A DNA stretch of 64,000 nucleotides from Bilabrum cf. latius (lineage: Eukaryota). The notes beneath the pieces are model-generated. The model did no database searches. It saw only the letters and a list, made by a program, of their open reading frames with translations, and was not told where the DNA came from. The translations under genes were made by a program, and so were the position numbers. Within the stretch, counting starts at the first letter, position 1. Every line of letters starts with the position of its first letter. Of this stretch, positions 12,701-55,716 are shown piece after piece. The stretch lies in contig OZ237735.1 of NCBI GenBank assembly GCA_965178125.1, positions 496,001 through 560,000 on the forward strand, read 5' to 3'.

Positions 12701-15700
12701 CACCGCTGAAGGTCGCCGGCTTGGCACGCTTGACAAACAGATGCCGGCAAGTCTGCCCAATGCTGTAATGACAGCCAATCTGCCATCCTGTGAGCTAGTG
12801 GCGGGGCCACCAATAGCACCGGAGACGGGCTCTGTGTTGTGTCCAGACCCATACAACAGGCCAGGCCACACATGAACGCCCTTAATTGAGCTCAAATCGC
12901 CCGTGTCAGGATGTTTCAATGGCGTAAAGCACTTGTATTGTGGCTTGAGTCTGCCCCTGCGAACATTCCACTCTATCCAGTACTGCAACGGTGTCGGGCT
13001 GATCACCATCTTGATGATGCTGCTCCAGTCGTATTGCACTTGGCTCAGGTCGATTTCGTTTACTTCAGACCATGAAACGCTCTGCACCAGCTACATACCC
13101 ACCTTGTCACGATACATGTGTCCACGAGCCCTCGTTGAGTCTGGTTTCAAACGCACTTGTGATTTTTGCTTCTCCTTCTTACGTAGGATGGCAAAATACG
13201 CCTGGACTACTCGCTCGTCATACATGAACGGGGCATGGCAACTCATCATTGCCGTTATGGTAGCACCAAAGGAGTAGATGTCGACAGATCGATCGTACTG
13301 GCGACCACGGAACACTTCCGGGGCACAAAATCCGATGGTGCCCTTCAAGCCAGACACTCTCGCATTGGGTGCAACGTACGTTGCCTCGCCAAAGTCTCCC
13401 AGCACAGCCCGCACCGAGCCCGAATCCTGCCTTGTGAGGAAAATGTTGTTCGGCTTGATGTCGCGATGCACAATATTAGCCCTGTGGATGTGCTCAATAG
13501 CGATAGCGATGTCGTGTAGAAGCTTAATGCGTGTGCGTAGTGTGAGCCAGGGGATGCTTGATCCCTTGCCCATCGATCTGTGCATGCCTCCAAGAGTTTC
13601 AACCTTTGGAAGAGGGTCTAAGCTTACCATATCAGACCTGGACTTTGAGCTCAGGTCCAAGGGGACCATTGAAGGACTCTTGGCCTCGCTAGCAGCACCG
13701 CTTGCTCCGCTCGTAAGCGCCGGTGCCTGTCCTCGTTCCCACTCAAAATGCTTCACAAGCACGTTTTTCAACGTACCAACCTCACAGAGCTGCCATAATA
13801 AAGAAACATCGTTGCCTTCCACAGCCCAGCCAAATGACCGCACAATGTTTGGGTGCGACAGCCGCCAGACTATCTCGTGCTCCGTTAGAGCAATCTTGAT
13901 ACGCCTCAGCAGCATCATCATACTCGCTGAATTCGCAGTGCCCTGAGGAGGGGGCTTGAAACTCTTGATAGCAACTGGCAAATGACCCATGGTTCCTCGA
14001 TACACTATTGCATAGGTGCCTTCTCCGATGCCGTTGAGGAGGTTGAATTGCCTTGGGTCCACAGCCGATTGCATTGCCTGTAGGTTGTCCAGCACCTGCT
14101 GCCGAACCCTGTCCAAGTCATGCGGCCGACTCTGCGACTTCTACGAGGATATGACAGAGTTTGGAGGGCCAGGCAACCGCCTAGCTGAGTTAGGCATCCT
14201 CTTCTACGACTTGGTGAGCAGTGCTGATCCGCTCTACCGTCTTCGCAGGCTCGCTCGACCAGATGGTGCATCTGCTTGTTGAGCTGTTGGTAGGATGCTT
14301 GACTTCTTAGATGATCTTTCGGAGTCTTGCTGGCGATGCCGCGGGGATCCAGCACGGTGCGATCCTTTGCTTCCACTAGCAGCAGTGACAGACTTCCTGA
14401 TGTTGCTCGCCTCGGTTACCTACTATGGCGCCTGCAGCCCCTCCTTGCTCTTGGGCACGTCAGACGTCTTGGATCGTCGCATCTTTGGAGGGCTCACGGA
14501 GGCAGCGTTGGCAATTGCAACCTCTGGCATCGCAACATTTGCGTCCGAGGCTCCCATGGTTGAGTTGTCTGCACGAGACATCTCGAACCCTTCCGTGTGC
14601 TGTCTCGACCGTGAATGCTGGTGGTGTAAGCGGCTGCTTCTGAACATGTCTGTGCGCCCAGAGGTGCCCGCAGCAGGCGTAGAAGGAGTTGCATCAGAGT
14701 CAAGATCAACGCTCATGTCGTGGAGCATTCCGATCAAGTCTGCAGCTTTGGGCCTTGCCTCCGGAATAGTGGCAAGGCACTCCATGGCGAGGCGGACGTA
14801 TGCCGCAGACACTGTGGCTCGCTTGAACTGCTTCCAGTAGGCTCTTACCGCCTAGGCAATCACAGTGGTACCTCCACCGGCATACTTTCGAACTGTCTCC
14901 ATCGAGCAGCCAAATGCCATCTCCACCATGATTGTACCGAAGCCATAAATGTCTTGGCTGGCTGTCGGCTAGATCGACTCCAAGTGTGCGGCACCTGCAG
15001 CTGGAGCCCCCGCACGAAGCGCTCGACAATGCTACGCAAAATTGCACACTTCCGGCGCCAAGCAGCACCTTCTTGTTGTGGCGAGGGATACAGCTGCAAG
15101 CTAGCAGCTTGCAAATATCCGCGCATCTCGCACTTGCGTGCTGCCTACGTCACCACAGCACAGCGCAGGCGAGCTGGATGCTGCCATATGTACAGACTGC
15201 TTCATGAGCACCTTTTCAACTACTTCGTTCGATGAAGATATTCCGACAGGAATAGGCACGTCAAACACATGCACGGGTAGGTGGTGGCCCTCCTCCTTCC
15301 CAACCTCGGTGGACCAAAGCAGCGAAAATAAAGAGGAGTGGGAACCATCACCATCCGTGCTGTTATCGTAGTCTTGCACCTTCATTGCTTCATTCGCAAT
15401 CGCAGCCGTGGTTGTTCCCGATCTTGCCCCCACCCCAGAGAGCAATGATCTCGAAGGAGTTCTTGGCATCGGCACCCGAGCACGGCTCCCTGCGCGGCTG
15501 CCTGCGGTGTCGCCAGCAACAGCAGCTCCAGATTGCACTAGCATCATGTGTGTCGACTTGCTACCACCCTTGGTACGCTTGGCATCCTTCCGACTGCTAG
15601 CATTACTAGCTTTAGCGCTCGCCCACGGCTTTCCATACGGACGAGGTGACTTTCCCTCGGCGCGCAGCCTGCCGAGCTGCTCGCCAAACAACGTCTACGC

Positions 15701-18700
15701 TATCCTCTCGTTCAACCCAGACTCGCCCTTTGGCAAAAACCACGCCGAATTCTCGCTGCACTCAATGTGATCAATCTGTAGGCCCTATACTTTCCACGGT
15801 TCGCTGGGGTCGAATGAACGGATGCCCCGGACTGGGTCCTTGTGACCGGCAGAACCGTGCGCCAGCTAAAGCCCGAGACGTTGCAATGCTCCCTGCATGC
15901 GAAGACGTAACGCCGCAACGTGAAGATTTGATATGCGGATGCTAACGTTGTCCTGCTGGAGAATAGCGTCTGTTGATATACTGCCATGAATAACAGGTGG
16001 CTCGAACGAGTGCAAGTGAGCCAAGCCTGAAGCGATCTAGTGAAGGATCTGCAGCCGCCCAGCACTGCCAATCTAAAATGCCGCTCCTGGTGACTGCCTC
16101 CCCTAGTCATCGACCTCATTCATCGAAGCTTCCACTGCAGAGTCCTGCGCTGCGTGGTGATTCATGCGAGACAATTGCTGTGACCAGCCAAGCTCAATCA
16201 CGGACGGAATGCGGGAGCTGCGCGGACCCCCATCGGATCCTACCACCGAACCGAACGCAGGATGGCTCAAGTTTCGCATGAGGGCAGCAGTGTCAAGCTG
16301 CACCTGTCGCGTGATCATGAGACCGACTCGCACCTGCAAGGGAGATAAGCTGCTGAACAGTGCTTGCGAGTAGCGAGCTAGATGTGAGCACCGCAGTCGC
16401 TTGACCAACGTATCGGTGCTCCTTGGTACCGCAGGCTTGGAGCGTTTTTGCTCCTGCTCATCAGCTGAGGACAGCTCAGCTTCAAATTCTGAATCTGTCA
16501 CAGCAGAGCGGTTACGACTGGTGCGAACACCGAAGCTGGAGTCTCGGCTGAGCTGCGGTCCCATCGCGACCCTGTGGGCGTCGGACGCATTCGTATTGGA
16601 TCCTAGCCCACGTGGGCTGCGGCCGCCCAGTCCAGCCATGAGATCCTTTTCTGCAGCCGAATTTCGTCCGTATCTCCCACCTAGCGATACCTTGAATTGC
16701 CGCAGCACAGCAATCTGTCGGTCTACGAGCCATGGTCCATCGCCCTGCTCGTCTAGCGCCTCGGAAGTGCCAAAAATTCGCCCAATGCTCGCAATCAAGC
16801 CAAGGCCAACGGATCGAAAACACACCTAGCTATTGGTCGACTCATCAACTGCAGGAACCCACACAAATGGGGGGTGGTGCTCTGGCAGGTTGGCGGTGCG
16901 AGCTAGGTGCACAGGCCCCATTGCCTCGCTCCCACTCCCAGAGGGTCGGGTAAGGATTGAATCCTCATCTGAAAGGGTTTTCTGCCACAAATACTCCTGC
17001 TATATGCTACTATTCCCATAATCTGGGCCTGGATGCTCCTGGCTTGTGCCTACTGTGCGCCGCCGCGCATAGGACTCGCAGTGGACGAGAGCCGCTTCGA
17101 GGTACCCAAAAACGGGGTGAGAGCGGCTTATGTCACGAGGGTCTTGAAATACCACCGTTTCCCTTGTAATCTTGTACGTTGACATGGATGCGGGGGATAT
17201 TGCATTGGGTCTCGGCCTTAAGAGCCCGACGAGCGGGAGGCCGAACAGGTGCCCTCCTTGACCACCGCTGGATAGTGCCAGCCGGAACATGCCCTCCTCT
17301 TTATCCATCCACATGCGGTGGGGCCGCTGTGAATCAGCCTGCCATGCAACACCCTGCCCAAGGTAAGGCACCATTGCCACTTCGCTTGAGTCCCGAGACC
17401 TGCTCTGTCCCCATAGGCTGTTTACAATGCCCCCTTCGTTGCGGCGAAGGCCAGTGGTCAATTTGCGGGCGGTGCTGGGCTATGTTTCCTCCCGCTGCGG
17501 CTCCACGCCGTTGACTTGTTTGGTCCCCAGCAAACCCTCCTCGGGATCAGTGTCCGATACGTCCATTGCGATGTGATCGCTATCGCTCACGCTCGAGCTT
17601 GCCATGCGATTCTTCCGAATTCCAGCAGTCGTCATGTTCGCGCGCGGTGCTGCGTATCGATCGGCTGCCGCCGCTGCCGCCCCCGACGGAACGCTAGCAA
17701 CCTTTTTGTGCTACTGCACTGCCTGCTGTCCATGGGGTATAGTAGGAGCAGTGCCGCTTGCTAGCATCCGCGCCCCTGCACTGCTTGCGCTTGAGATGGA
17801 GGTACGCTGTCCTGAGGAGCCCCCTGGCCCCCCCTCATGATGGCTGCCCGAGGCTGTCGGTGGCGGCCGATCCGACTAGGGGATCATGATGGTCGGATTG
17901 ACGAACACTGGAAGAATTGAGGGCTTGCCGCGGCCTTGCCTGCCACCCGGCGCTGCTGTGCCAGGCTGCTACGCATTGCTTTGGAGCTCGGTTGGCGCCC
18001 GCCAGGGGCAACAAGTCGGCTTGACACCGATCAAGCAGGAAATGAAGCTATTGCACGAGTCGGTCGGCTCCACGAGCACTATCCGAAGGCCGTTGCTCCG
18101 CCCGGATCGCTGATCTCTGAGCTGCGCAAGGTGCAGCTGCGTCCAGCGAATGGTGTCGTGGGCTGCATTCATGCGCACCCCGACCGTGGCAACGAGGGCG
18201 TACCCAGTCCATAAAGAAATCCAAACCGGATGTGGAGCCTCACTCCAAATGTCCGCGTAATGTATGCAATGCAACACCGCTGTGACAGACCACAGCAGCA
18301 CGGACCCCAAGTGCGAGTAGGTCGACTCCACCGGTGGAAGGCGCAAGGCCGGGACTGTATTCACAAGCACAGAGGCAAGGCTTGTGACAAGCTAAACGAC
18401 AGTTATAAGCGGGAAATGAGAAAATCGCACTATGGGCTCGCTTGCAATCTTGTACTCTTCTCGAGCGTCCGCTGTGGCATGGTCAAGCATCCTATCCTGC
18501 ACCTTGACGAACTGCCCCGACCGATACTGCCCTAGACCCAGAACGGCGGATCCATATATTGCGCAAACAAATACTGCGTGAAGCCCCCAGTGCAAGATCA
18601 GAATTGTGAATGTTGTAAGCTATCGGTTGGTGCAAGCAAGCAGCGCACATCCAACGAAGAAGCACAAATGTACGATACCTTGGACAGCCAGCGACGCCAC

Positions 18701-18943
18701 GAGATTAATCCAAGCGCCACTACTGTGGTCTCCAAACAATGGGTCGGTTTGCATCTTCCAAAGTGCCAGAAAAACCCACGGGAAGATGGCGAGCAAGGCT
18801 AGTATCACCGCTGTCACTACAAGGCGAATTCTGGAGCGAGTGCGCTCTGCAATTGCCATTCGATCAACATCAGACCTAAGACTCAGATCAATTGGTAGTC
18901 CTGTCGATGCCGAGACGAGTAATGCTACGCCATGTTGGCTCAT
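9713..18943 (-). CDS. Giant (~3,076 aa) membrane protein: ~6 N-terminal TM segments, insert-rich pseudokinase, intact TKL-like kinase, long C-tail; ~38 in-frame TAG
   Basis: One frame from ATG 18943 to TGA 9713, interrupted only by TAG. Hydrophobic segments at ~18150-18830. Pseudokinase motifs ILH*IASGLAHLHSFEPPVIHGS, LAPE, SQDIYGFG, PEARP. Active kinase at 13091-14116 with GEGTYAIV, VAIK, HRDIKPNN, DFG, APE, DIYSFG. Confidence 0.75.
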
Positions 18944-19345
18944 GATGGCGCCAGTTGACAGACGCGACGGAACCTTTTTCTGTCCGCACGAGTACTCTTT
19001 CTCTGACCGTTTTGTTAGGTTGCTATGCAATGAACGTCTAATTTGTTGTAACCTGTAGCAATTTTCGGTGGTAAACTGTGAAGGAAGCGCGGTTTACGTT
19101 TTGAGTCGCAATTGAAGATGAGCTCGAGAAATTAAAGGGCCCCGACAGGGGAGGGGCCCTCAAAGTCGCCAGTGGTCGCACAGGCACCACCGAGCCCAGG
19201 CAAGAAGAGAACTCGAAGTCTTATTTTCAATTCAAAACCACAAAAAGTCAGCTTGGTAGAGCTATAGCCCGTGCTTGACGACTCTCGCGAGCTTAATGCG
19301 CGGGCAGCTTGCAGCCCCGCTCCACTGCCATATTCTATGGCCGAA

Positions 19346-26542: not shown

Positions 26543-26639
26543 CAGGCGTGTTTCCCTTTGGCACTCAGGGCACGGTAAATTGCACGCTACCGTAGATTGG
26601 CAAAACCACACTACTCAGATCCGCACTATTTGTCGTACC

Positions 26640-29397: not shown

Positions 29398-32300
29398 ATG
29401 GCGATGATTGCAGGTGGCGTACATGATGACCATCTCAATTGGGGGACAGCAACGAGCGTGGCAGATTTCTTATCCACGCTGCGCAAGAAAAAACGGAAAG
29501 GTGGCCGCAGGCGTCACAGCGCCGAGGTTGTTCACGATGCAAGGCTGAAACGAAAGCGATAGTCGGCAAGAGGATAGAGATCATCAGTAGCTGGCGTTCT
29601 ACACGCTCTTAAACGGTCAAGCAGCTAGTTTGGCAGCAAGGGCTCCATGCGACGCTCGGCTTCGGATGGAGCGTCATCTGCAGGGCCTGCATCTGAGAGC
29701 ACAGGATCATCAATTCGAAGGTCGGGATTGCAAGCCCCTCTTCCATTTGTCTCGGGGGGTGCAAGCGGCGGGCGGTCTTCTGCCAGGGTGCCGTTTTCAG
29801 GCGGCAGCTCCGGCGGAGGTTCACAGCCGCCTGTTCAAGCTCAATCCAGTGGAGAATAGCCAATAGCCAGCAACCCTGACCGTGCAAGTCAACCTACTTT
29901 ATAGTATTTGTAGGCAACTCCTGGAGTTGGAGGTTCTGCCATGCTTGGCACTGGATTGCTAGCGCCGCAGCTAACGGACCCAGCAGCTCGCGCTCGCCCG
30001 CCAGTCAGTCTTCGCGTTCGAGAGCCGAGCGATTAGCTGCTTCATTAGGGCCATCATTAGGGCTTTTCGCACGCTCGTGCCATGCAAGCGCCGCCCCCAC
30101 CCCGTGGCAGCTCTGCATCGGTTGAAGCTCTCGATAAGCAGGACATTGATGCTGTGCACCAGTCCATACTCCGTTTCAACCTGGCTCAAGAGGCTAAAAT
30201 GCAAGCTGAGTATCGCGATGAGCAAGAGCGCTTGTGGGCTCGCCGACGAAACGTTGCGGAGTAGCTGACGGGATGTCGTCGAGAACTCAGTGACTGGGTC
30301 GATGAGGGTCTCAAGAGCTGGAAGGCAAAACTGTTTTCAGCCGTCGTGTAGCTCATCATTATCATCAACGTGCTGGCCATTATCCTGGAAACTGAGAGAG
30401 ACGTCAATGATGCTGCCCCGGATGGCTTTTTTGGGTATCTGGATGCCGCCTGCTCCATCCTGTTCACCATTGAGATTGTCATACGAGTGTGGGCCGCAAG
30501 CAGCCTCTGCAGCTATATTCGAGAGCCCATGAACTGCATCGATATAATAGCCGTCGTTCCCTTTTACATTGGGCTGGTAATCTAGCTGGTCGAGTCCCAG
30601 GGGGGTTCAGGGGGCGGGCAGGGCGTGGACAGCTTCCTGCAGGCTCTGCAGCTGGTGAGAATCGTTAGGGTGACCCGCGTGTTCAAGCTGAGCAGGTACT
30701 TTAGCGCGGGGCAAGAATTCGTGCGGTTGCTATCCACAGCGGGATCAAGCCTCTTCGTGATGCTGTTCTTTATACTTGTAGCTCTGACCGTCGCGGGGTC
30801 CGCCCTCCTGTACACCGAAGAGCTCGCCGAGCGCATCCGGGACCCAGGGACCGTGCTTGGTCCCAACTACGAGGCTACGTTTGGGTCCATTCCTGGCACT
30901 GTGTACTTTGCAATCACCACGATGGCACAGGTGGGCTTCGGAGACGCGATTCCTGCCACGGTCCCGGGTCGATTCATCGCAATCTTGGTTTCGTTCTGCG
31001 GTTTCGTGCTCTTTGCTCTGAGCGTGACTGTGATTTCGCAGCATTACCATCACATGAAGCGCATGGATGCTATGGTACAAGAAATGGAGGAGCGTGAGAA
31101 CGCGGTCAAGGAAGTCAAGCAGCGATTCGGGATGAAGAGGGCGTTGTCAGCGGAGTACGCCGAGGGCGCCAAGGACTCTGCCACTAGGAGCCTGGCCCAG
31201 TACCTGAGGCAGCTCGGTATTGACGAGGCATTCGACATTGAGTCTGATTTTGAGGATGGGCCTAGTGACAGGGACACCAGCGATGGCGAAGGTGCAGCCG
31301 CAGATGACAGGGCTGCCGCAACCGGCACGGTTGCGTCGGGATCGAGCGGCTAGGGCGGGGACGGTGCGCCGGACGAAATCGACAGGGAAGCGGAGCGAGC
31401 AAGGATATTTGAGGAAAGGTACGCACTCGAGAGGTTTCCGTTTGCTCTCACGACAATGCACGCGACAAATAGGTTTGCACGCAGCTTCGATGGTGTGGAC
31501 TTTGTCCAAGACAGGGTGCAGCGCGATTTCAGAGGCTTTTAGGGAGATACTGCCGATTGGTGGGACTATGACATCGACGCTGAGTTCGGAGGGAACGTTG
31601 GCGAGGCTTCTGGGATCAACGCATCTGGAAGCGTTGTTGGGCAGGACACCCCGCACGGTGGAGCCTGGGAGGAGAACGATACCTTTCGAGACACCAATGC
31701 AGCGGAGAACATGACCAGCCCTGGCTTGGTGGCAGCAAGAGTGGGTCTTGCCTCTCCTGTAGGCTCAATGGGAATGGGGGGTGGCACGCATCCGGGCGGA
31801 GCCATTGGTGGCTATGGCGGGTTTGAGACTCCCGCTGCTCAGGAGTCTCCAAGCCAATCGGAGCAAGCGCCCGCGAGGCCGAACAGGCCCAGGTTGTCGA
31901 GAGCGGCGCAGCGGAGGAGAGCCTCCTTGGCAGGGCTCGAGAGGGGTCGGGCCGCTACTGGAAGTGATTCTGTTCACGTAACTTACTCAAGCTCGACCTC
32001 TCGACGCGCGTCTACCAAGGGACGCAGCACGCACGACAGGCAGACCTCGAGCGGTTCCAGCAAGCGCTGGAGCAAGAACACGATGCAGATCACCACTGAA
32101 GACGGTGCTGGAACCGTGTCAGCCAGCTCCCCCTCATCGGGATCCATGAAGGGATACATGAGGACATCAAGCAGGCGGATTGTGGTAGGAGCGACCGGAA
32201 ACGACTCCAACTCGGCTGTTCCAAGCGATAGGAATGACATCACTGATGGGGCTGCAATTAGTGATGGTCGGACGGCAAGTATGCCACCAAGGTAGAAGAG

Positions 32301-35004
32301 ATCGGCTACCCTTCGACCGGCCGGCAGGAAGCTGCCTGCCAGGCCTCGTAGGGGGCGTCACAGCGTGGAGGAGCGTGGCAGCGGGAGCCGCGGCTAGCAT
32401 TATCAGAGTGACACGAAGCGGCATTTCATGGAGCCGGATGTGTCGATCCGCCCCGATTTTGCAGCCACGCTTCGAATAGAGTGGTAGCGGGCGAGACGAG
32501 CCAACGCAATCCGGCGATTTGAGGAACGCGCCTCGCAGCTGAAGCAGATCGCAGGCCTGATGCAACAAATCGCGTAGCGAACCAACGAAGATGGGGACCA
32601 GTACGAGCGCGAAGAGAGCGAAGATACGCTTGAGAATGAGAAACGAGTGCTGGGTGGTGCGTCGGATACAGGTACGAAAGCTCGCCGCAGGAGCGCTGGT
32701 GGCTCCATCCGAGATCAGTTCGTGGGACTCGGTGGATTCACTCGATAGCTGGCCGCAAATAGATCCAAAGATGACGGCTCTCCGCATGGCAATACCTAGC
32801 GAGAGCTCGGGGAGGATGACGTGCACTCGAGTGCTGCACAAAGTTTGAGTATATCGGTATCTCAAGCTGCTGCGCTGGCCCCGGGGAGCCAGGTCACCAA
32901 GCCTCGACGGAAGGCAGAGTTCTTGCCGAAGCGACGCCGGGCCCGGCGTGCGAGCATCGGTGTATCAAGTGTGCGACCCAAGCATTCCCTGCTAGACAGT
33001 CCCACCGGCGGCGATCATCACAGGCAGATAGACATGGCAGACCTCCTTGCTCCGCCTTCAGTTGGGGACAGCGGTCCTGCTAGTGGAATTGCATCTCGTG
33101 GCCGAGACCGAGGCAGGACTCGCAACCGCCAGCGCAAGTCTGCAGCAGGGCGAAAAAGGCGAACGTCCAAGGAGTCGAAGGCTTCGAAGAGCTCCAAAAG
33201 CTCTAAGGAATCGAAGTCTTCCAAATCTTCACGGTCCTCGAAGTCCTCGAAGGACCCAGGCAAGGACAAACTGCCTCCCGCGAGCCCCTCAAGACGACCC
33301 AGGGCACCCCGCAGAAAAATTAGAGGTCGCAGAATGAGCATTCAGCTAGGTGATGTGTCATTGCTCCGTAAATTGGAGCAACAGGCCCAGGACATTGCAG
33401 AGAGAACGGCGAGAGTGAGATCGATCCTTGCAGAGCAGCAGGCCGAGGACGACGAGGCCGACGGTATGGCCTTTGCAATGCTAGCTGTGCCGGCAGGCGA
33501 CACAAAGAATCCCACTCCTGGAAGTGCTCGTGCCCGCCGCAAATCGTTTTTAGTGCCTGGCGGAGCAGCGGATGCCACTACGGAAGCCCGCATCCTACAC
33601 AAGCGCCTGTCTGAGGCAGCTGAGGCGAAGAAGGCCATTGAGGAGGAGAGGCGGAAAAAGGCCAGAGAAAAGGCAAAGGCGACCCTCGCTAAGCTGAAAG
33701 GAGTATAGAAGCTCAAGAAGGCCTCGAAGAAAGCCCTGAGTGCCCTGCGGCTAACTGGAAAGCTGAAGCTGGGTGCGGGTACCAAAGGGGCCAGTGGAGC
33801 CGACAAAGTGGCAAGCATATTTGGAATGGCAGCGAAGGGGGGGGCTGGTGACGGCGAAGTGCCCGCTGGAGTGAAACTGTCCATCGCTGGCGCACCAAGA
33901 ACTGGGTTGCTAGCCGCGGTCCAAGGCGCAGTCCGGGGAGTGCTGGCAAGCGACCCAAGACGCAATACCATGCCTGGCTTCAGTGATGACCTGGAAGGGC
34001 TGACGCCCACCGAAATCCGAGCAAAGCTTGAAATCGAGTGTCGCACCGGTCATATGACTGAGCAAGAGCTGGCAGAGTGCCTGCAGTTGATTGAAGCATC
34101 GTACCTGAAGTGGGAATCGAAGATTGACAGCCTGATGGAGACAGTCCAGACCGTGTTCGTGTCTGTGTGCCAGCAGATGAGGGTCAAGGTGCCAGATGCC
34201 ATGATGAAAGAAGTGAGCGCTAGGATCAATGGTAATTTGTATAGCGTGCAAGGCGGTGGTGGGGGCAAATCCGTCAGCAGCGTCGGCAGCACCGCCGGCG
34301 ATGCAGGTGCGTCGGGGTTCGCTGATCCGGGTGCAGGCGGCAGTGTGCTGCACTAGTCACCTCGCCGCGGCAGAGCCAATCGCGGAAAAGAGGACCTTGC
34401 TCGATCTCTGGCAGTCCGCCATCTATCGCGTCACGCGCGCGCCGCCGCTCAGCGCGCTTAGCAGGGTAGGCAGGGTTCGGAAGCGTAGGGTGGTTTCTCT
34501 GTTGGACCGCTACCCCTAGCAGGTGCCAGCGCCCCATCGTCGCGAGATGGACGGAGGCGCTTCAAGTCGATGCGCATTCGTAACATTACTAGAGGTCCAT
34601 TGCACCGCGCCAAGCGGAGTACAAGCAGGAACAGTGCTACCGGAGTTGTACCCCAGGAGCCCCACACGACTCAGGCAGCTGGCGTCAGAGGACGAGGTTT
34701 CTTCAAGGACGCGCAAGGCGCCAATGAATTTGGTGGCGGAGGACAGCTGCATAGCAGCGGCTCACCTGCGAGGCGGTCTTCGGTCGGGGGATCCTCCACG
34801 GGGGATCGACGTGTTCGTCGCGTGTCTGTGGCCGTGCACCAGATGAGGAGGAGGCAGAGCATCACCCGGCAGCGGACCAGAGAGGGCGACGCAGTGCTGG
34901 CTCGAGGTGCGCGTAACATACAACAGAGAGAGGATGGTCAACTGCTCGAGGCAGCATCTCGGCGCGAAAGCCTGCGGCGGGCGGCCACGACAGGCGCCGA
35001 TTGA
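29398..35004 (+). CDS. Voltage-gated K+-channel-like protein (S1-S6) with long low-complexity termini, ~1,868 aa; many in-frame TAG; start uncertain
   Basis: LFTIEIVIR, PMNCIDIIAVVPFY, S4 LVRIVRVTRVFKLSRY, pore FGSIPGTVYFAITTMAQVGFGDAIPATVPGR. The frame continues through TAG only to TGA 35002-35004. Confidence 0.8.
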
Positions 35005-44877: not shown

Positions 44878-45503
44878 TCCTCAGATTCGAGCGATTGCTA
44901 CCGAGTACGTGGTTTGACGAAACTTGCGTTCTCTGGAGCAAGTGCGGAACCATTGGAAAGCTGAGATGCGCGGCGCCGAGATCACTGATCAGTGATCACT
45001 GATCAGCCCCCCGCAGCCAGAGGCCAGCGGCCAGCTCATGAGTCAAGGCCTGCTGCAGAACAGGTAGAAGCTCTCCTTTTCTTGGAATACTAAACTAACC
45101 GTCGTGTGTAATACTTTCACTTTCTCTGCCGCGGGTCAAGCTCATTCAAGTTGCAGGAACCCCTGCAACGTTTTAGTTATGCCAGCAAAGGAGTCGCTTT
45201 GCCATCCACTGTCAAAATGTAGTTCATATTTACTTGTTAGAGCACCAATGGCTGCTGCTGGTCAACCATGCTCGCGCCCGCCAATTATTTGCATCTTCAT
45301 CTTGAATAATAACACATGGGCAGTGGTGGTTGTAACCTCAAAATGATTGGTCTCCCGTCACCGTAAACTTGGCAACCTTGCTTACACGCTTGAGTTCTTC
45401 ACTCCTTTTTTCTTTGCTCTGCTTGTCAACAGCAGTGTTTTGTGAGCAGCTTCCGTATTGCTGTTAATTCCCTAAGGATTCAGCAACGGCTGTGGAGTTT
45501 CCA

Positions 45504-47672
45504 ATGGTCGGGGAGCAGCAAACCGCGGCCACCCAATAGAAGTCCGAAGAGGACAAGCTTGCCAATGCGGCCTGGCGCTGGCAGTATTTAGCCCTCGCAT
45601 GTTCTCTTTGCCTTCTGTGCGGTGGCGCTGTTTTCGGTTTTTCCATCCTGGAAGGCCCGCTGGCGGATGCAGGTGCTTTCATTGGCGACTGCTCTGAACC
45701 CGGCTGCGATGAGCAGCGGCTCGCGATAGGAACAGTGTATACAGTCGCTAGCGTCAGTGCATTTATTTTTGCCGTGGCGATGGGCGCCATGCTGGATCGA
45801 TTTGGCCCCAAAGTTACAGTAGCGGTCTCAACTGCGGGCTTTTCCGCCGGTGCCCTGCTGGTCGCCGTTGCTCTTACCACGAAGACGTGGTGGTTGCTCT
45901 ACCCTGGGATCGGACTGTTTGGTGTCATGTCTCAAGGCATCATTGCCCCGCTAGTTCCGACTTCAAACTTGTTTCCTGGCTCCGAGGCAATGGTGATTTC
46001 GGTAATCAACGGTGCCTTTGACGGATCAGTTCTCGTGTTCCTGTGCTTGAAAGAAATTGGGGCTGCTGGGAGTAATGCCATTGGTCTCGAGGGCGCATTC
46101 TTCGTGTACGCCGGGGTGTGTGCGGCCCTGTGCGTAGCTGTAATCGCGATCCTTCCGAACCAAGTGTTCGTGCCGCACGAGATCGACGATGTGCTCAACG
46201 GAGTCATTGCCGAAAAGGTTGTGAGTAGCATGTTGTCCGAGGAAGAATCGACAAAGGCAGGATGCCAAGATTCTCCGAAGGAATAGAACTCCCCCCGAGT
46301 GGCGCCCTCCTCCGGCGGCTCGTCGGGACTAGACTCCAAGGCAGCTCCTACCCCCGGCCAACCGCAAGCAGAGCCAGCCACTCTGCTACAGCCCGTGCAC
46401 AATGTCTCAGGTAGCATCCCTTCCACCGCTCAGCGGGCCGCAGAGCCTACGGTGGGGACAGCTGCCGCCGGTGCAGCAGGCACTAGAGGAGTTGCCAGTG
46501 CGGTGACCAAGACCGACGGAGAGGAAGGGGTTCCTGAGGGGGGCCCTGAGGGGGGGGGGCCTGCCGCTGCCCCCACCGGATCGGCAGGCAGTCTTGACGG
46601 AAGTGGCAGCAGCAGGGGTGAAGGCAGCAAGTAGGGGGTGATCCAGAGCGACGAAGGGTGGGACGAGGAGGGGAACAGCGCGGCAGCGCCTAGCCAGTCG
46701 GGGTGCGAGCGCTTCCTGGAAACGATCCAGTCCCCCGTGTTCATCGGGTACGCCCTGTTCTTCGCCACCAACTCGCTGTTCTACAACTACTACTTCTTGA
46801 CGCTGGGCACGAGGCTGCAGGCCAACGCGCTGATTGCAGAGGGTGAGCCCACGGACCTGCTGGTCCTGAACGGGAGGGAGCCGGGCCCAGAGGAGCAGGC
46901 TGCTCTGGACGACGCGGCGGCCGAGGCGGGCCGGCTGCTGGACATATTCGGGATTCTGTTGCCCGCATCGGCGGTGGTTGTGTTCCTCACGGGATACATC
47001 ATGGACACCGCAGGGCTCGTGTACGCATTCTATGGCCTCGTGTGCGTGGCCGTGACCTTCCAGGCGGTTGCCATGGTACCGGACCCTCCCATGCTGCAGA
47101 TTGCGACATTCATGCTGTTCGCTGTCTTCCGCGCCTTCATGTTCGGTTCGCTAGGAACGTTCCTCATCACGGAGTTCGGGGCTGAGCTGGTGGGAAAGCT
47201 GGTCGCGGTGATCGTTCCCTTTGGAGGCCTCATCAGCCTGCTGCAGTACCCCTTGTTCCAGCAGGCCATGCAGGTCTACAAGGCGGACTTCACGGTGACC
47301 TCCGGCAGCCTGATTGGCCTCGCCGTGCTGAGCGTGGCATTCCCCATCGGGTTTGGGTACCTGCACGGCTACAAGTGCAGGTACGTCAAGCTAGAGGAGG
47401 AGAAGCAGAGGAAGGTGGAGGCCGCCAAGAAGAGGTGGGGCAGGGTTCGGGCGGCTGTGCCGCGGGGTGCCTTCCGCGGGCTTGGTCGCAAGGACATCGT
47501 GCGAGTGGTGACTGCGACCAACCTGAGCAAGACCCTCAAGGATGCCGCGGAGGAGGCACAGAGGATCGCGGCGAGTGTGGCGAAGCGTGACGACGGCGGC
47601 AACGGAGGAGGAGGCGCAGCCGACCCGGCAGGCAGCAGGGCTACGGAGGAGGGAGGGGCAGCTGGTCAGTAA
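45504..47672 (+). CDS. MFS transporter, SLC43/LAT3-FMP42-like; TAG at 45537, 46284, 46632; ends TAA
   Basis: LCGGAVFGFSILE..L..AGAF..C..C.EQ, GAMLDRFGPK, SNLFPG..ISVINGAFDGS, FRAFMFG, LLQYPL; about 12 hydrophobic segments. Confidence 0.8.
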
Positions 47673-47890
47673 GTTCTGAACTGGACGCGGAACTGGCACG
47701 CTGCCGGGGGGGAGGTGCCACGATGCTACACAAATATGGACAGTCAGGCCCTTCGCACCACATGGCTTGGCAGGGTAGCACGGGCTAAAATGGGTCATTG
47801 AACCACAAAACGGCAATTCAAACTGCAATTATACAATCCAATGATTAGCCATAAAGTTGCAAGAAGCGTTAGTTATAGTTGAGGAGGGCT

Positions 47891-48351
47891 TCAGGCCTTC
47901 TCCGTCTTCTGGATCTCCACTCCGGCTCCTGGTGCCCGGTATGCAGTGATGTAGTGCGTCACCTCGGTTGCACCGTTGGCAGCAACATGGAGCTTGTACA
48001 TTACCCCTGCGACTACCTTGGTCTGGTACTTGAGCAGGGATACGCTGGAGACATCGCCGTCGTGCTCGGCAGACACTGCTTCCGTAAGCTGCGGCGACCA
48101 GGAATTTGCACAAGCAGGAGAGACGCAAAAATGAACTCATCGAGAAACTCGTTAAAAGGTGTGATTCTCTCTATTTTTCAGCAATGCACTTCGCTGCTGC
48201 CAACGCAGCGGACATGTAGAGCACGCGAGGTTGGACTAGCCGATCTTGCAGGACATTCAGCGTGGTATCGCCTCACCACGGCATCATCGAACTGAGACTT
48301 GATCTCATCATCAGCATCACGAATATCACTCCATCCACCGGTGACTGCCAT
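47891..48351 (-). CDS. Cystatin/stefin-like protease inhibitor; intron 48089-48276
   Basis: MAVTGGWSD N-terminal Gly motif and YQTKVVAGVMY first hairpin loop. GTGAGG..CGCAG intron; ends TGA. Confidence 0.72.
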
Positions 48352-48499
48352 AGTTGATTTTACTTCAAGTACGTTGATATGAGAAGAAAGCTCCATGGTG
48401 AAGAAGCGCCAGACTTGAATGTAACGTGTGAATAATCGTTTTTGGTCCAAATCGGTTTCCTGCAGATTCCGTGGAAGCCCAGTTGTGCAGATACCTAGG

Positions 48500-51400
48500 A
48501 TGCAGCCACTGTATGCAGGAAACGGAATCGTTGCGATTCGTAGAGAAGACAAGAACAAGTGGGAAAGAAGGGTGAGAAATTAAAGGTTTAAGCACGCGCC
48601 GAGCCGACTGTTGGTTATATTCACCATTCTGTCCCTGCGGTGGGCCCACTCGAATGTATAATTGTTATTGACCCTGTGATCAATAACAAAGAACAAATCT
48701 ATCGTAGCGTAGTTGCTGCGATACCCAATTGGCTGCGATGAATGTGCTCGAATTTTCAAGATCGCTCCGCCTCCAATCGTTTTGGTGTGGTACGCAGGCA
48801 CCGCTGGCTCCCGAGCATGTCGCTGCGCTGGTGTAGCGAGGCGTCCGTGTTGTTGTTCAAAAGAGTGGTAGGCGATGCTACCCTGATGGGGCGTACGCCG
48901 CTGCTGGCGCAGAAGTAAGACTTGCGACTGTTCCTACAAGGAGTTGTTGATCACTTGCAGCTCTACCGTTATGAGTTTCCCTCTGGAGTTTATGTTGGCG
49001 TATTTATCGCAGGTTCAAGAAGATATTTCAGCGGCTTCGACGGTCCTCTGCGTGAAGGAGCCTCCGATCGATCTTGTAAGGAACGCATCTGCCACATCAG
49101 CTGCCCCTGCCATCGCAATTCTGCCTCAGGGCACTCGCTGTCCGATCAATTGAAAGTACACGCATCTTTCGCAGCTCTTGTCACACCCCGGTCGCACGTG
49201 GGTGTGCTTTAGCCACACCATCAAGGCCCAGCGGAGCAACATGCCGCTCCTCGACGCGTTCCTAGCCTCTCGCCAGCGCCTGATCGACTACGAGTGCATC
49301 ACCGAGACGGGCGAGCGCAGGGGCAAGCGCCTCGTTGCTTTCGGGCGGTTCGCAGGCCTGGCCGGCGCGGTGGATTTCAACCGCGGGCTGGGTGAGCGCC
49401 TCCTGGCCCTTGGGCACTCCACCCCCTTCCTATCCACTGGCTCGTCCTACATGTACCGGAGCGCGGCAGAGGCCAAGGAGGCCGTGAAGCGGTGCGGGGA
49501 ACAGTTGGCGGATGAGGGCCTCCCTGCAGAGCTGTGTCCCTTCGTGGCGGCTTTCACAGGGGGCGGCAACGTGGCCAAAGGTGCCAAGGAGGTGTGGTTC
49601 AACCTTCCGCACGAGGTTGTCACCCCCGAGGAGCTGCCCGCTCTCATGGCGTCCTGCAAGGAGGCTGATAAGAAGCACGACGATGCAGTGGAGGCGTGGA
49701 GCCTCGCAACTGCGGACGGAAAGGCTCCTGGTCCTTCCCCCCCGGTACCAGAGCACAGGCGCAAGGTCTACATGGTCGACATTGGGAGGGAGGCCATGGT
49801 GGAGCGGAGGGGGCAAGGGGGGACGGGGGCAGTGGAAGGTGCTTCCGCTGCTTCTTCCAAGGCGAAGATCGACCGCGCGCACTACTCAGCGCACCCCGAC
49901 GAATATGATCCGATCTTCGCCCGGGACGTGCTCCCCTTCGTGAGTGCCGTGTTCATCTGCCACTACTGGGAGCCCAAGTACCCCCGTCTGTTCACCGCCG
50001 AGGACTGCGGAGAGCTGTGGCGGGCTGGACAGCTTCGGCTGGTTGGCGTGTGCGACGTGACGTGCGACTACATGGGCGCGTGCGACATGCTGACCACGTT
50101 CACCTCCATCGAGGAGCCCTTCTTTTGCGCGGACGTGGGTGCGGTTGGTGCGGCAAAGAAGCAGGCTACCGGTGGCAGCGGGGCCTCGGGAGCGGGTGAC
50201 GACGCTGTGTCGCTGGCGTCCGCTGGGGCGGGCATCGAGGTCGAGTACCAGGGCGAGGGAGAGGGCTGGCCCGTGGCCATGGGCGTGGACGCCGGGGCAA
50301 AAGCAGCCAAGGGTCTGGGCAAGGGTCCAGCAAGCCGCTGGGTGCTGTACCACGCTGTGGACCACCTGCCTTCGGAGCTGCCGAGGGACTCCACGGGTCA
50401 CTTCGGCTCAGCCCTCGTCTCGATGGTCGAGGGACTGGCCTGGGACGACCAGAACGAGTCCAAGAGCCTATTCGACAAGCCCGGCAAGGCCCAGCCGATG
50501 ACCTCCACGGAGCTTCCAGCCGTGCAGGAGGTGGCCAAGGCTCCCGTGTCTGCCCGCAAGGCTCCCGACGGCGTCTCTGCCTTGTCGAGGCTGTTAGTCG
50601 GTGCCACCATCACGTGTGCGGGCCAGCTGACGCCGGCCTACCGGTACATTGCAGCCATGCGCAACGCAGATGAGCGCGCAGCGCGCAGCATGGCCAAGTC
50701 TGGCTCAGACCAGGCGCTCTCCAGGATGGCTCAGGGCGGCTCCGACGGAGGCAAGCTCCAGGCGCAGGGCGACACGAGCAGCGTTGGAGCGGGCGTAGAC
50801 AGCCTGCAGGAAGGCAAGGGCATGCGGCCGGTGGAGGCCGTGCGCAGCTCCAGCATCGGGGACCAGCTGCTGGCGGCCGCTGGTTCCCAGCCGAGAGCAA
50901 GCCCTCTGGCAAAGCCCCCTGCAATGCGAGTCCCAGCCTCTGGGCAGCGGCGGATGGCTCGCGCACCCAGCTACACGACGATGTCCGTGCGCGGTCACTT
51001 GTTCGACAACAACGTGATCAACAAGGTGCTGGATGTGGTGGAGAAGAACAACGGCGCGGCCAACATCCTGCGGATGGAGGTGGGCAGGGACGGCGAGGAG
51101 GAGTCCATCGCCGCACTGCAGGTGTTCGTTCAGGACGGCAACAAGGCCGGGGCCCTTACCAAGATGGTGGAGCAGGTGCACTCGACGGCCAAGGAACTCG
51201 GGGCCGTCGTGGCTCCCATGGCAGTGGGGGATGCAGCAAAGGAATCTGCCGGTGCTGCCAACCGCTTGGCCAAGTTCCAACGAGGCGGCCCGGGCGATGG
51301 GGCCACCGCTGGGTGGGGCTGGGGCCTGGGAGCCGATGCCAGCGGCGCCACGCACCTCGTACCCATCCGTGCAGATGGGGCGTCTGCCGTCGATGGCAGC

Positions 51401-53290
51401 CGGGCCGTCTCCACGCCTACAAGCCTCGGCATTGCAGTAGATGAAAGGCCCGGGGGCCGAGCGGCGGGAGGGGCCATGGCCGCCGCGGCGCAAGGGCTGC
51501 CGGCAGACGTGCTCTCCTCGATGTCCCCGATGATCCCAAAGGCGATGCCTCGGGAGGCGTGGTCCAGGCGGGTCCTGCTGCTGGGCAGTGGCCTAGTGAC
51601 TGCTCCCCTTCTAGACATCATGCTGCAGGACCCAAGGAACGCCATTGTGGTTGGCAGCTTTGACGCCGTGCAGGCTGCAGAGCTGGTCGCCCGGGTAGCT
51701 GGGGGCCGACTCGGCCTGCCTGTCGCGCCTGACGGTGGCTCTGCGGATGCCTTCGCTGAGCACGGAAGGTCCGACGGCGACCAGCTTGTGGGGGGTGGCA
51801 GCGCTGCTTTCTCTCACCTTTCGAAGGACCCGATCGCGGGCAGGCGCTGCGCTGCCACGTTCATCGACGTGAACAACCAGCCCAACCGGCTGATGCAGCT
51901 CGTGAGCGGTGCCGATGTTGTCCTTTCGCTGGTGTCTGCTCCATTCCACCCGCCCGTCGCGAAGGCGTGCGTAGAGTCTGGAGTGAACATGGTGACCGCC
52001 AGCTACACCAGCCCTGCCATGAAGGAGATAGAGTCAGACGCGAAGGCGAAGGGCGTGCTGCTGCTGAACGAGTGCGGCCTCGACCCCGGGATAGATCATG
52101 CCACGGCCGCCCGGTGCGTTGACAAGGTGCGGGCGCAGGGTGGCACTGTTACGGAGTTCTCCAGCGTCTGCGGCGGACTGCCAGCTCCCGAGGCAGCCAC
52201 CAACCCGCTGGGGTACAAGTTCAGCTGGGCACCTCGGGGCGTGCTGACCGCATGCAAGAACGACTCCGCCTGGCTGGAGGGTGGTGAGGTCCGCAAGGAG
52301 CCAGGGAGCCGGTTGCTGCAGACGGCCAAGGACATGTACGTCAACCCTGCGTTCAGCCTGGAGGTGCTGCCCAATAGGGACAGCATCGCGTTCATGCAGA
52401 CGTACGGGTTTGCCCCGCCTGACGGGGCTGCGGCTGGTGGAGCTGCGGGTGCAGAGGCTCTGGCAGGGGGTGCGAAGCGCTTCTTCCGCGGAACCCTGCG
52501 CTACAAGGGATACTGCGCGCAAGCAGAGGCATGGCGTCGGCTTGGGTGGCTGTGGGAGACGGATGCCAACGGACCGGACAGGTGCATCGGACAGGACGGC
52601 TCGGGCAAGCCAACCATTGCGGCACCGTTTGCAGAAGCCAGTCTGCAGACTGACGGCGGCATCTCGCTGCGGCGATGGCTTGCCGCGTCTCTGGGGCTTG
52701 GCGGCGACAGATCGGCCGAGGCGCTGGATGCTGTGACGGACAAGGAGATGCAGGACGCGCTGGCTGCAGTCTGCGCGAAGGAGCCCGCCATCGAGCCCTC
52801 GGCTTCGCTTCGCAACATGCAGTGGCTGGGATTCTTCGGGCCCCGCGTGCTGCGGCCGCCGGCGTCTGGCCGGTTGAACGGTGGCGTGGTCGCTGAGGCA
52901 CCTCCGCTGGATGTGCTCTCGCACCTGCTGCAAACCGAGCCAGCGATGGGCTACGCTGTCAGTGAGGCCACCGGCAAGCAAGAGAGGGACATGGCCCTGA
53001 TGCGCCACGTGGTTCGCGCCGAGTACCCCGCAGCGGGCGGCAAGCCCGCTCGCAAGGTGAGGATCGACAGCACACTGATCGAGTACGGCAGCGACACGGC
53101 GGGCGGAGATTCAGCCATGGCTCGGACGGTCGGCTACTGCAGCGCCGTCGCGGCTCAGCTCGTGCTCGACGGCAAGCTCTCTGAAGTGACAGGTTGTGCC
53201 ACGCCTGTGCAGCAGGCCGTCTACGAGCCCCTGCTGGCTGGGCTCGAGAGGCTTGGCATCCGCATGGAGGAAGAGGAGCATGAAGAGTGA
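48500..53290 (+). CDS. AASS: Bifunctional lysine-ketoglutarate reductase/saccharopine dehydrogenase; introns 48572-48797, 48915-49012, 49076-49174; TAG at 48834
   Basis: IRREDKNKWERR|APLAPEHV, VKEPP, FSHTIKAQRSNMPLLD, RLIDYE, RLVAFGRFAG, VDHLPSELP, LLGSGLV, NECGLDPGIDH, CGGLPAPE..NPLGYKFSW, RGTLRY, SAMARTVG. Confidence 0.93.
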
Positions 53291-53586
53291 GGGATCCGGT
53301 TGAGGATCATCCCAAACGGGAATGGACGTGGGGCGGTGCCGGTTGGCTGGTTTGCGTGCGCCGCCATCACCTCTGAAGATGGCCATTGCAACTGACTTCA
53401 GTTGCCAAAACAGCAGTGAATAACACGGAAGTATGAGCAAATTCAAGCAACCAGTATACCAAATTACTGTGCCAAACGACTCGACGTCTGAACATTTCCT
53501 CGAGCACGCACTGCGTCGACACAAGTAGTACCCACGCGGCCACGAGCCGATCACCTGGCAGCAGTCACACAGCGTGAAAGCACCAC

Positions 53587-55716
53587 TTACACAAGAAACG
53601 TAAAGCAGCCTGTCGGGCTCGTGCAAGACATCTTCACCATGGCATAGAACTGGAACTCGGGGAGGAGCACCTCTAGGACGCCCGGCTTGCTGGAACTGTC
53701 TCGCACAGTCACGTTCACCTGGCCGACGTGGTCAAAGGCGGACACAGAGCTGGACGAGATGCCTGGCTTTGCAACCAGCTCAACGATGGCGTTAGTCACG
53801 TTCGGAGGCCGCCGTGGTGCCCTCTCTCGCTTGCCGCACCAAGCGAAGGCATTGGTCACCGCGAGCACTGGGCTGGCGTTGGCTTGGCCGGGCACTGCGA
53901 AGACGTTCATGTGGGCGTCGATGGATTGAGGGGGAACTGGCACCCCACTCACACCCCCTTCTGAGTCGGTTGCTGCCTGCATTGCCGAGTTGTACTTGAG
54001 CGCGGCTGGCGGTGCCCCGACCGCATCGGTGATCATTGCCCGCAGCTTCGCAGCCGCCCCCGGTCGCTTGGTAGCGTCCAGCCAGTCTCCCGTAGGAATG
54101 TCCGTCATGTTGACGACCTTGCCACCCGCGGCAACGTAGCTGGCCAGGGCGCTCTGCTGGTCAGCGGTGGGACGCGCCTGCTGAGGCACGACGAGGACTC
54201 TGGTCATGCCCCGCTGCAGCACGGCCTGTGGGTCAGGGGTGACGCCAGGCCCTGTCGCATTGAAATTGGGCACGGCGCCGATCTGCCAGAGGTGCGCCAC
54301 CCTCCGCGGTACGTTCCAGCGAGTGAGCGCGTGCCACGCGCCCATGGTGGCCCCCATGAGCTCCGTCCAGACCTGCTGGTCTGGCGTCGCAGGCTTGTTC
54401 ACAAGAGGCACGAGCTCGTCGCGACGCCACTCATCCATCGCGACGCTCGCCCAGCCCACCGGCTCAAGCCCATCGAGGATTCCCGCGAGCCGATTGCCCA
54501 CTTTGTACGTCTCTGCGAACAGAGTCGCGTTGGGAATCCCGCCCTCGGAGTGGTCCGGGTTCGCCACGAGACCGTACGACACCATGGCGCCTGCGCCGCA
54601 CTGCACGAAGTCAGACCCCTCCGAAGAAGCAGGGTCCCACGTGTGCGGGGGCCTACCGTACGACGCATCTCTGGACGTTGCCCAGCCCCACGAGATGAAA
54701 ATGTCCGCGTCGAAGGAGGCGTTGGCGAGGTTGCCCGCGAACCCGCGCAGGCAGGGAACACCCCTGCCCGTGTCGTACTCTATCTTTGGGACCTGCAGCA
54801 CCCCATCCTGGGCCTCCATACCCTGCCACTCGAAGAGCTCCCCGCCGCTGTCCGCGCAGGGCAGCTGGTGGGTGGAGAGGAACGGAATGGCAGGCGCTGT
54901 GCGGTTGCCTGCGGCGACGCCCATCTCGCTGGCGTTCGCGATGGTCCGAGCGATGTCCCCGTAGAACTTTGTGACCGTGTACGTGTTGTATTGCAGCACT
55001 TTCTTGTACTGCGCGGGGTCCTTGGTGGGATCCTTGGGCATGGGTTCCCCCCCCGACCATTCCTAGTACTTGGCTCGGCACGCGTCGCAGAAGCAGCCCT
55101 GTGGAGGGATGGGATACTCATCTACGTAGACGCCGTCAACGCCGGCATGATACACGAGATCATGCAGCTGGGACAGGTACGTCTCCCTCCACCCGGTGTT
55201 GATGCAAAGTCCCAAGCCGCGGCTGAAGCGTACCGGGCTGCCTTGCACGTCTCGAGAGAGCCAAGTCGGTTCATGGGCCGAGTAGTACGCGTGACAGCGA
55301 GGATAGTGGTACGCGATGAAGTGTGCTCCTGCATCATGGGCTTTCTTAGCTATCTCGACGGGGAGCTGCCGGCCAGTGTTGCGCACAATCGGAAGCAAGC
55401 CCTCCTCTGGAATCGGGGCGGATGGATACCTCATCCAGTCCCCATCTGACCCTTCGTGGGTGTGCCGCACAAACGCATGCACTCCAATTTCAGCAAAGAG
55501 CTTGGCTGCGTCATCAAAGACCGGCTTGCAAGCAGTGCTGTTGCAAAATGACTGCGCTGCGAGTCGTGTGTGCGCGTGGAACCTTGTGCTGGAATACCAC
55601 TCTGGAACTGCGTGTGAATCGCTCGTACAGCCAATGGTGGATTGTATACCCAATGCTACAATTGCTACCGCAGTACTGGTAGGTATCATGGTCGTTGCAG
55701 CTTCTGTATCGCGCAT
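53587..55716 (-). CDS. Secreted glycoside-hydrolase-like protein (GHL6/GH42-like TIM barrel); TAG at 55063; ends TAA; alternative start 55689
   Basis: Hydrophobic leader TAVAIVALGIQSTIG; AHDAGAHFIAYH, HEPTW, LCINTGWRETY, GVDGVYVDE, GCFCDACRAKY*EW. The two supplied ORFs join in frame over one TAG. Confidence 0.6.

Follow-up and report, generated by a model that had tools for sequence, protein, structure and literature searches.

Sequence evidence for UAG as glutamine, with UAA and UGA as stops, in the nuclear code of the bicosoecid-like stramenopile Bilabrum cf. latius

Why the stop codons UAA and UAG nearly always change meaning together is an open question. In the UAR=Gln code (R, A or G; NCBI table 6, used by Tetrahymena, hexamitids and ulvophytes), UAG is read as glutamine by a tRNA-Gln(CUA); UAA means Gln too, and a tRNA(UUA) is present. 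The few decoupled cases known come from transcriptomes or from incomplete assemblies, and lack the tRNA. The fornicate Iotanema spirale uses UAG as Gln and UAA and UGA as stops, dual meaning not being found in the available part of the report (Panek et al. 2017, PMC5304391). UAG alone has also passed to Gln in the ciliates Hartmannula sinica, Trochilia petrani and Protocruzia tuzeti (McGowan et al. 2024, PMC11687900, available in part). There, UAA closes 86.9-98.3% of genes in reassigned phyllopharyngeans, a dominance argued to lock UAA as stop, and no suppressor tRNA was detected in H. sinica and T. petrani. The same source describes UAG uncoupled from UAA in favour of other amino acids, Leu in the rhizarian exLh and in TARA ciliates and Ser in Scotinosphaera, the Leu suppressors deriving from the cognate tRNA-Leu. 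The code type itself is already known from Iotanema and the three ciliates. Here we analyse Bilabrum cf. latius, starting from a window of 64,000 nucleotides (GCA_965178125.1, contig OZ237735.1, positions 496,001 to 560,000; G000:C1:496001-560000) in a 48.6-Mb assembly of 111 contigs. At the level of sequence, its nuclear code assigns UAG to Gln and leaves termination to UAA and UGA. On the code, the original prediction, which had argued against the ordinary UAR=Gln code, is upheld: no internal UAA turned up in the sequences tested, and no UUA tRNA was found. The full explanation, which is very probably correct, joins this code to a CUA tRNA and a release factor eRF1 that is probably weakened at UAG.

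The 14 long frames of the window hold 121 TAG, 181 CAA and 440 CAG codons and no internal TAA (hand sum), whereas a TAA:TAG ratio equal to CAA:CAG would give about 50 TAA. The absence of TAA from coding sequences had already been noted, as had the two TAA stops, both of which we found in place. The features concerned are as follows.

9713..19093, minus strand: kinase frame of 3126 codons with 38 TAG and 0 TAA, the strongest single case within the window
29398..35004, plus strand: ion channel frame with 24 TAG and 0 TAA, ending in TGA (open reading frame and Pfam)
45504..47672, plus strand: coding sequence of an MFS/SLC43-like transporter, 722 codons, with in-frame TAG at 45537, 46284 and 46632 (open reading frame; Pfam MFS_1, E=1.5e-8)
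47670..47672, plus strand: TAA stop of the transporter, with a coding score of 0.35 before and -0.29 after
47673..47825, plus strand: probable 3' untranslated region of the transporter, about 150 nt (contig ends at 47825 and 47826 in two studies, a weak hint)
53587..55689, minus strand: coding sequence of a GHL6-like glycoside hydrolase with an in-frame TAG at 55063-55065 (Pfam GHL6, E=1.3e-5, below cut-off), its start placed by the signal peptide and a contig end
53587..53589, minus strand: TAA stop of the glycoside hydrolase (sequence and frame)

The stop census of the original prediction needs a small correction. It had counted 17 TGA besides the two TAA; the 18 genes with a stop in the window comprise 16 ending in TGA and two in TAA, and the nineteenth, UTP20, leaves the window at its left edge. 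Contigs were available from public runs that are listed only as guessed RNA, none being recorded as RNA, and such contigs cannot place poly(A) sites. In one run, contigs 45371-47825 and 53417-55694 span the transporter and glycoside hydrolase genes with 0 differences from the DNA and reach about 150-170 nt beyond both TAA stops. Run contigs that are spliced keep TAG and TAA unaltered. RNA editing and stops made by polyadenylation were rejected, since run contigs agree with the DNA across both TAAs. In a strain 93% alike, two frame-breaking +1 insertions lie downstream of the transporter TAA (47772 and 47782), and a net insertion of 9 nt lies upstream. An in-frame TGA follows the two window TAAs after 43 and 12 codons, respectively. 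By themselves these TAAs are thus weak evidence, and tests were therefore run outside the window.

The codon tests reach about 1.5% of the genome, with seven Pfam families in addition, and this narrow base counts against the reading. In 664 kb (four contigs), frames of 1000 codons or more rose from 7 to 56 when TAG was opened and stayed at 7 when TAA was opened. Coding potential was scored with a periodic Markov model over the 60 codons downstream of triplets preceded by at least 120 coding-like codons. The score exceeded 0.15 after 65% of 210 TAG and 66% of 363 CAA, and after 0 of 9 TAA and 0 of 56 TGA. An ordinary UAR=Gln code, with TAA rare only through high genome GC, could appeal to TAA being the most AT-rich codon and to the in-frame TGA shortly downstream of each window TAA. 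However, with CAA at 1030 of the 5783 Gln codons of long coding frames, this code predicts about 53 continuing TAA sites, and at most one of the nine scored above zero. Against it also stand the eRF1 and dynein-2 genes, which end in TAA at the homologous end, and the UUA tRNA, which was not found. We consider it to have next to no chance of being right.

A genome-wide search for seven Pfam families returned 401 matches, which contain about 291 TAG, 4 TAA and 13 TGA (hand tally). All four TAA, and 12 of the 13 TGA, lie at splice donors, at branch points or within introns; the remaining TGA lies in a weak kinesin match and has no explanation. In that match (L192, G000:C14:146677-146928), TAG and TGA are adjacent and in frame with no obvious intron, which would fit a pseudogene, selenocysteine or an error. 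None of the 12 frames re-scored among the 15 listed contained a TAA with coding sequence on both sides. One of the TAA-opened frames (L071:7025-9472, G000:C3, minus strand) is a beta-helix gene apparently split by an in-frame insertion of about 430 bases, flanked by short direct repeats, which contains the TAA and a splice donor. The dynein-2 heavy chain is a single frame of 4619 codons with 60 TAG. It ends in a TAA that falls within 0-4 residues of the homologue end in 16 of 28 homologues; three other dyneins end in TGA. The eRF1 gene also ends in TAA; in metagenome contig L103, which is 82% identical in nucleotides across 236 codons, the aligned codon is TGA. One CAG/TAG swap separates the two sequences as well. 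Thus, the code is common to at least one relative. Among 112 long coding frames, 96 (about 86%) end in TGA and 16 (about 14%) in TAA, although an intron may begin at some of these ends. On this evidence, UAA and UGA are genuine terminators.

Alignments and codon context both bear on the meaning of UAG. Alignment columns were taken from 28 of 120 matches for dynein-2 and, for the other dyneins, from the 40 nearest of 150 at each column. Among dynein columns with at least 85% conservation, TAG stands opposite Gln in 12 of 17 cases, Glu in 2 and Tyr or Leu in none; CAG stands opposite Gln in 58 of 64. Tyr or Phe is the consensus at 0 of 34 conserved TAG columns. One TAG of the eRF1 gene falls where 89 of 94 homologues have Q. 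In a test independent of homologues, the neighbours of 697 TAG codons are enriched in Gln (+0.40), as are those of CAG (+0.40) and, similarly, CAA. They are not enriched in Glu (-0.08 versus +0.69 for GAG). TAG makes up 12% of Gln codons and is present in 101 of the 112 long frames.

Two observations weigh against this reading of UAG. TAG accounts for 24 of 121 Gln codons within the last 20 codons, versus 12% overall, so that a few terminal UAGs are possible given this enrichment near the 3' end. At 60% conservation, there is a Glu excess at TAG columns (Q16:E8 versus Q119:E11 for CAR, p=0.003) that is not fully explained; at 85% it is not significant (p=0.22). The first observation would suit a dual meaning that depends on context, as happens in Condylostoma or Blastocrithidia, with UAG (or UAA) a stop near the poly(A) tail and sense elsewhere. 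The negative downstream score at 23 of 210 TAG sites would suit it too, but most of these sites are close to the next TGA or TAA or in low-complexity coding sequence. The coding-score and long-frame data hold no clear terminal TAG beside the slight 3' enrichment. The 3' untranslated regions, judged by contig ends, extend over some 150 nt. Internal TAA appeared in none of the tests: TAA and TGA are terminal only and TAG internal, save the TGA of the weak kinesin match. A dual meaning is therefore very improbable.

A candidate decoder of UAG was found at G000:C23:907607-907679 by ARAGORN and as an Rfam match. This tRNA(CUA) gene is single-copy, folds into a perfect cloverleaf and is followed by a T run. 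The search for a tRNA(UUA), which the original prediction expected to be absent, found none with Rfam, ARAGORN or four pattern searches, although intron-containing or atypical genes might escape them. The pattern searches were added because the Rfam search scored 63 of 780 candidates. One of them gave 102 matches, of which 30 loci, with three further candidates, went to ARAGORN; the remaining listed ones were inspected by eye and two were unlisted.

The tRNA(CUA) very likely carries Gln. Its G73 is that of tRNA-Gln, where tRNA-Tyr has A73, and its D stem equals that of tRNA-Gln(UUG) at 8 of 8 nt. The acceptor and anticodon stems resemble those of tRNA-Tyr, with 10 of 12 pairs matching and both differences compensated. 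No comparison among 202 pairs of tRNAs for different amino acids reaches 10 (mean 3.6, maximum 8). The stem pairs shared with Gln(CUG), Gln(UUG), Trp and Asp are 6, 3, 3 and 1 of 12; tRNA-Trp and tRNA-Asp were rejected as parents on these counts. The variable loop of tRNA(CUA) has five bases, like that of tRNA-Tyr; both Gln tRNAs have four. An origin from tRNA-Tyr with a later switch of identity is thus somewhat favoured. The tRNA(CUA) retains C1:G72, a eukaryotic Tyr determinant, which counts against its carrying Gln. Two points detract from the Tyr origin. Whole-molecule identity to tRNA-Tyr (41/60) is under the null maximum of 45. The parent comparison was made without His and Leu, which were not recovered, and without Phe and Val. 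Descent from tRNA-Gln, with the Tyr likeness arising by chance or convergence, would account directly for the shared D stem and G73, for Gln(CUG) being the second-best match and for the modest overall identity to Tyr. Against it stand the ten matching pairs, the compensated differences and the five-base variable loop, and we regard it as the less likely origin. A73 and C1:G72 are described as eukaryotic Tyr determinants and G73 as a TyrRS antideterminant in Escherichia coli (PMC9976931, PMC1483225, in their available parts). The same sources report mischarging with Gln of amber suppressors built on other tRNA bodies. There, CUA on tRNA-Trp, tRNA-fMet and yeast tRNA-Tyr variants attracts E. coli GlnRS; those suppressors are engineered, depend on a bacterial enzyme and are often charged at trace levels, whereas a natural nuclear gene is at issue here.

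The mixed identity elements of this tRNA raise the possibility of an ambiguous UAG, read both as Gln and as Glu, or of a UAG read as Tyr. The excess of Glu at moderately conserved columns points that way, as do the Tyr-like stems with C1:G72 and an anticodon loop with A37-C38, as in tRNA-Glu. However, no conserved TAG column has a Tyr or Phe consensus, and the neighbour profile of TAG is like that of Gln. Both Glu columns at the 85% threshold belong to a single motif, where another dynein of the same genome has CAG. Such a reading has only a slim chance of being correct.

In GlnRS, we examined the Arg aligned to the human and yeast motif F[KF]RL, which we take to be E. coli R402, a contact of G36. 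Gly replaces it here. An adaptation of GlnRS was rejected: the same Gly is found in plants, Tribonema and others, 20 of the 22 long eukaryote-type homologues in all. This change would be permissive at most. Other tRNA genes also drew attention. A nuclear tRNA-Trp(CCA) (L257, G000:C40:414993-415065) has an A-C mismatch at 31:39 and a Gln/Glu-type D stem. The anticodon of tRNA-Ile is GAU in both genes seen (L011, L240); the usual eukaryotic one is AAU. Several near-identical copies of tRNA-Met(CAU) occur with a tRNA-Pro(UGG) of similar body (8 of 12 stem pairs; L238, L243-L245, L025, L234), possibly a second case of tRNA recruitment. A tRNA-Sec match above the Rfam cut-off at G000:C29:255847-255933 suggests that UGA probably also encodes selenocysteine.

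The genome has a single eRF1; a search for a second paralogue gave only eRF1 and Pelota, the only other family member. The gene (L001:1068-2941, G000:C35) has four exons and two in-frame TAG in the stop-recognition domain, one at the position of L69. Its own synthesis thus depends on UAG read-through. Autoregulation through these two TAGs was set aside, the TAG rate not being above the genome average. Compared with 95 full-length homologues (human numbering), the protein keeps T32, S33, E55, NIKS, S70, V71, Y125, C127 and F131. Its differences are G29A, N30D, S60V, L69Q, N129S and K130H. None of the 95 has N30D or K130H. In the available parts of the literature, position 129 is linked to third-position G, and yeast N126S (equivalent to N129S) is enriched in an amber read-through screen (preprint PMC12440015). 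L69A raised read-through slightly more at UAG (PMC4381064, in part), and L69 is also altered, to Ala, in exLh (PMC11687900).

A weakening of eRF1 at UAG is likely on these grounds. Several points stand in its way. Every residue named as a direct stop contact is canonical. S60V was rejected as a cause, changes at position 60 being without effect in human eRF1 (PMC3632111, in its available part), and L69Q was rejected because it is common in standard-code algae (Micractinium) and in many metagenome eRF1s. N30A is neutral in yeast (PMC4381064). The original prediction implied a release factor that reads UAA and UGA and is blind to UAG. Its first half agrees with both codons terminating; its second half is plausible, although the direct contacts are all kept, and weakened recognition is as likely as outright loss. 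Alternatively, the code may be as given with eRF1 still omnipotent and the CUA tRNA outcompeting it, UAG being a leaky sense codon (an ambiguous intermediate). Besides the canonical contacts, this would be in line with TAG's share of Gln codons falling from 17% to 6% over the GC3 (third-position GC) quartiles and with a next-base G after TAG in 31% versus 38% after CAG (p=0.002). However, CAA drops alike, from 23% to 10%. With TAG in nearly all long frames, and 60 in one, little termination would be tolerable. The long eRF1 stem branch (0.39) and the yeast N126S result also argue against an unchanged factor, so that we hold this alternative to be unlikely, though a serious contender.

The favoured mechanism can be outlined as follows. 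UAG would most likely be decoded by the lone tRNA(CUA). Its C34 cannot pair with the A of UAA, so that UAA could have remained a stop without further change. The single eRF1 would still terminate at UAA and UGA. It would probably have lost part of its grip on a third-position G through changes beside the contact residues, N129S/K130H with L69Q being the best candidates, and the tRNA would therefore win at UAG.

The closest named eRF1 match is that of Cafeteria roenbergensis (69%). In a tree of 32 rows, eRF1 forms a clade with Cafeteria (support 94/87); in the dynein-2 tree, a 98% split places the organism on the same side as Cafeteria, but on a long branch. These two trees suggest a bicosoecid-like stramenopile. 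An eRF1 labelled Symbiodinium sp. KB8 (P0009) groups near Cafeteria with bicosoecid-like sequences, which suggests that its label reflects a contaminant; its clade also has L69Q and N129S. The mitochondrial genome (G000:C111; L246-L249) is 38.4 kb long, has 24% GC and encodes a tRNA with a UCA anticodon; under table 4, 22 of 22 long frames end in TAA. Mitochondrial UGA=Trp is shared with Cafeteria roenbergensis/burkhardae (10.1101/751586). In contrast, the N-domain of Cafeteria eRF1 is canonical, and the available part of that report mentions no nuclear code change; our comparison does not extend to the Cafeteria nuclear code.

Two further genes lie between the TAA-ending genes of the window.

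47891..48363, minus strand: small spliced gene ending in TGA, with no Pfam match (three of the four runs show a joint across intron 48089-48276)
48500..53290, plus strand: LKR/SDH (alpha-aminoadipic semialdehyde synthase) gene with Pfam saccharopine dehydrogenase domains, start approximate

The LKR/SDH gene has three introns with GT-AG joints in contigs of four public runs, a TAG at 48834 in exon 2 and a TGA end. Elsewhere in the window, purine/methylthioadenosine phosphorylase and amidohydrolase domains are apparently fused in one spliced gene (26478-29256, plus strand). A long tandem Lys/Gly/Asp-rich repeat (42050-44800) forms the N-terminal half of an ABC-F frame (39598-44877, minus strand).

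This case differs from those already described in its lineage, in the dominance of UGA over UAA, in the intact T32 and in an identified tRNA of apparently non-cognate origin. Iotanema, a fornicate and not a stramenopile, has UAA as its dominant stop (104 versus 15 UGA), whereas UGA dominates here (96 versus 16). Its eRF1 carries T32G in the GTS loop, where T32 is kept here, and its tRNA is not identified in the available part of the report but predicted to come from tRNA-Gln(CUG) (PMC5304391). T32G is missing from its relatives (PMC9161772, in part). No stramenopile nuclear code change was found in the literature searched, most subscription papers and all supplements lying outside it. We see about even chances that this is the first such change and that it followed an unrecorded route: an amber suppressor of tRNA-Tyr (GUA to CUA) turned to Gln through G73 and a Gln-type D arm. 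The lineage would then be a living halfway stage to UAR=Gln, the reverse of the UAA-locked ciliates. This halfway-stage reading rests on UAA being down to about one seventh of stops. A single assembly here supplies codon statistics together with one candidate tRNA, one eRF1 and the GlnRS, which opens every step to assay. Amber-suppression engineering seeks just such a factor, an eRF1 blind to UAG that keeps UAA and UGA. For this clade, gene calls made under the standard code come out truncated.

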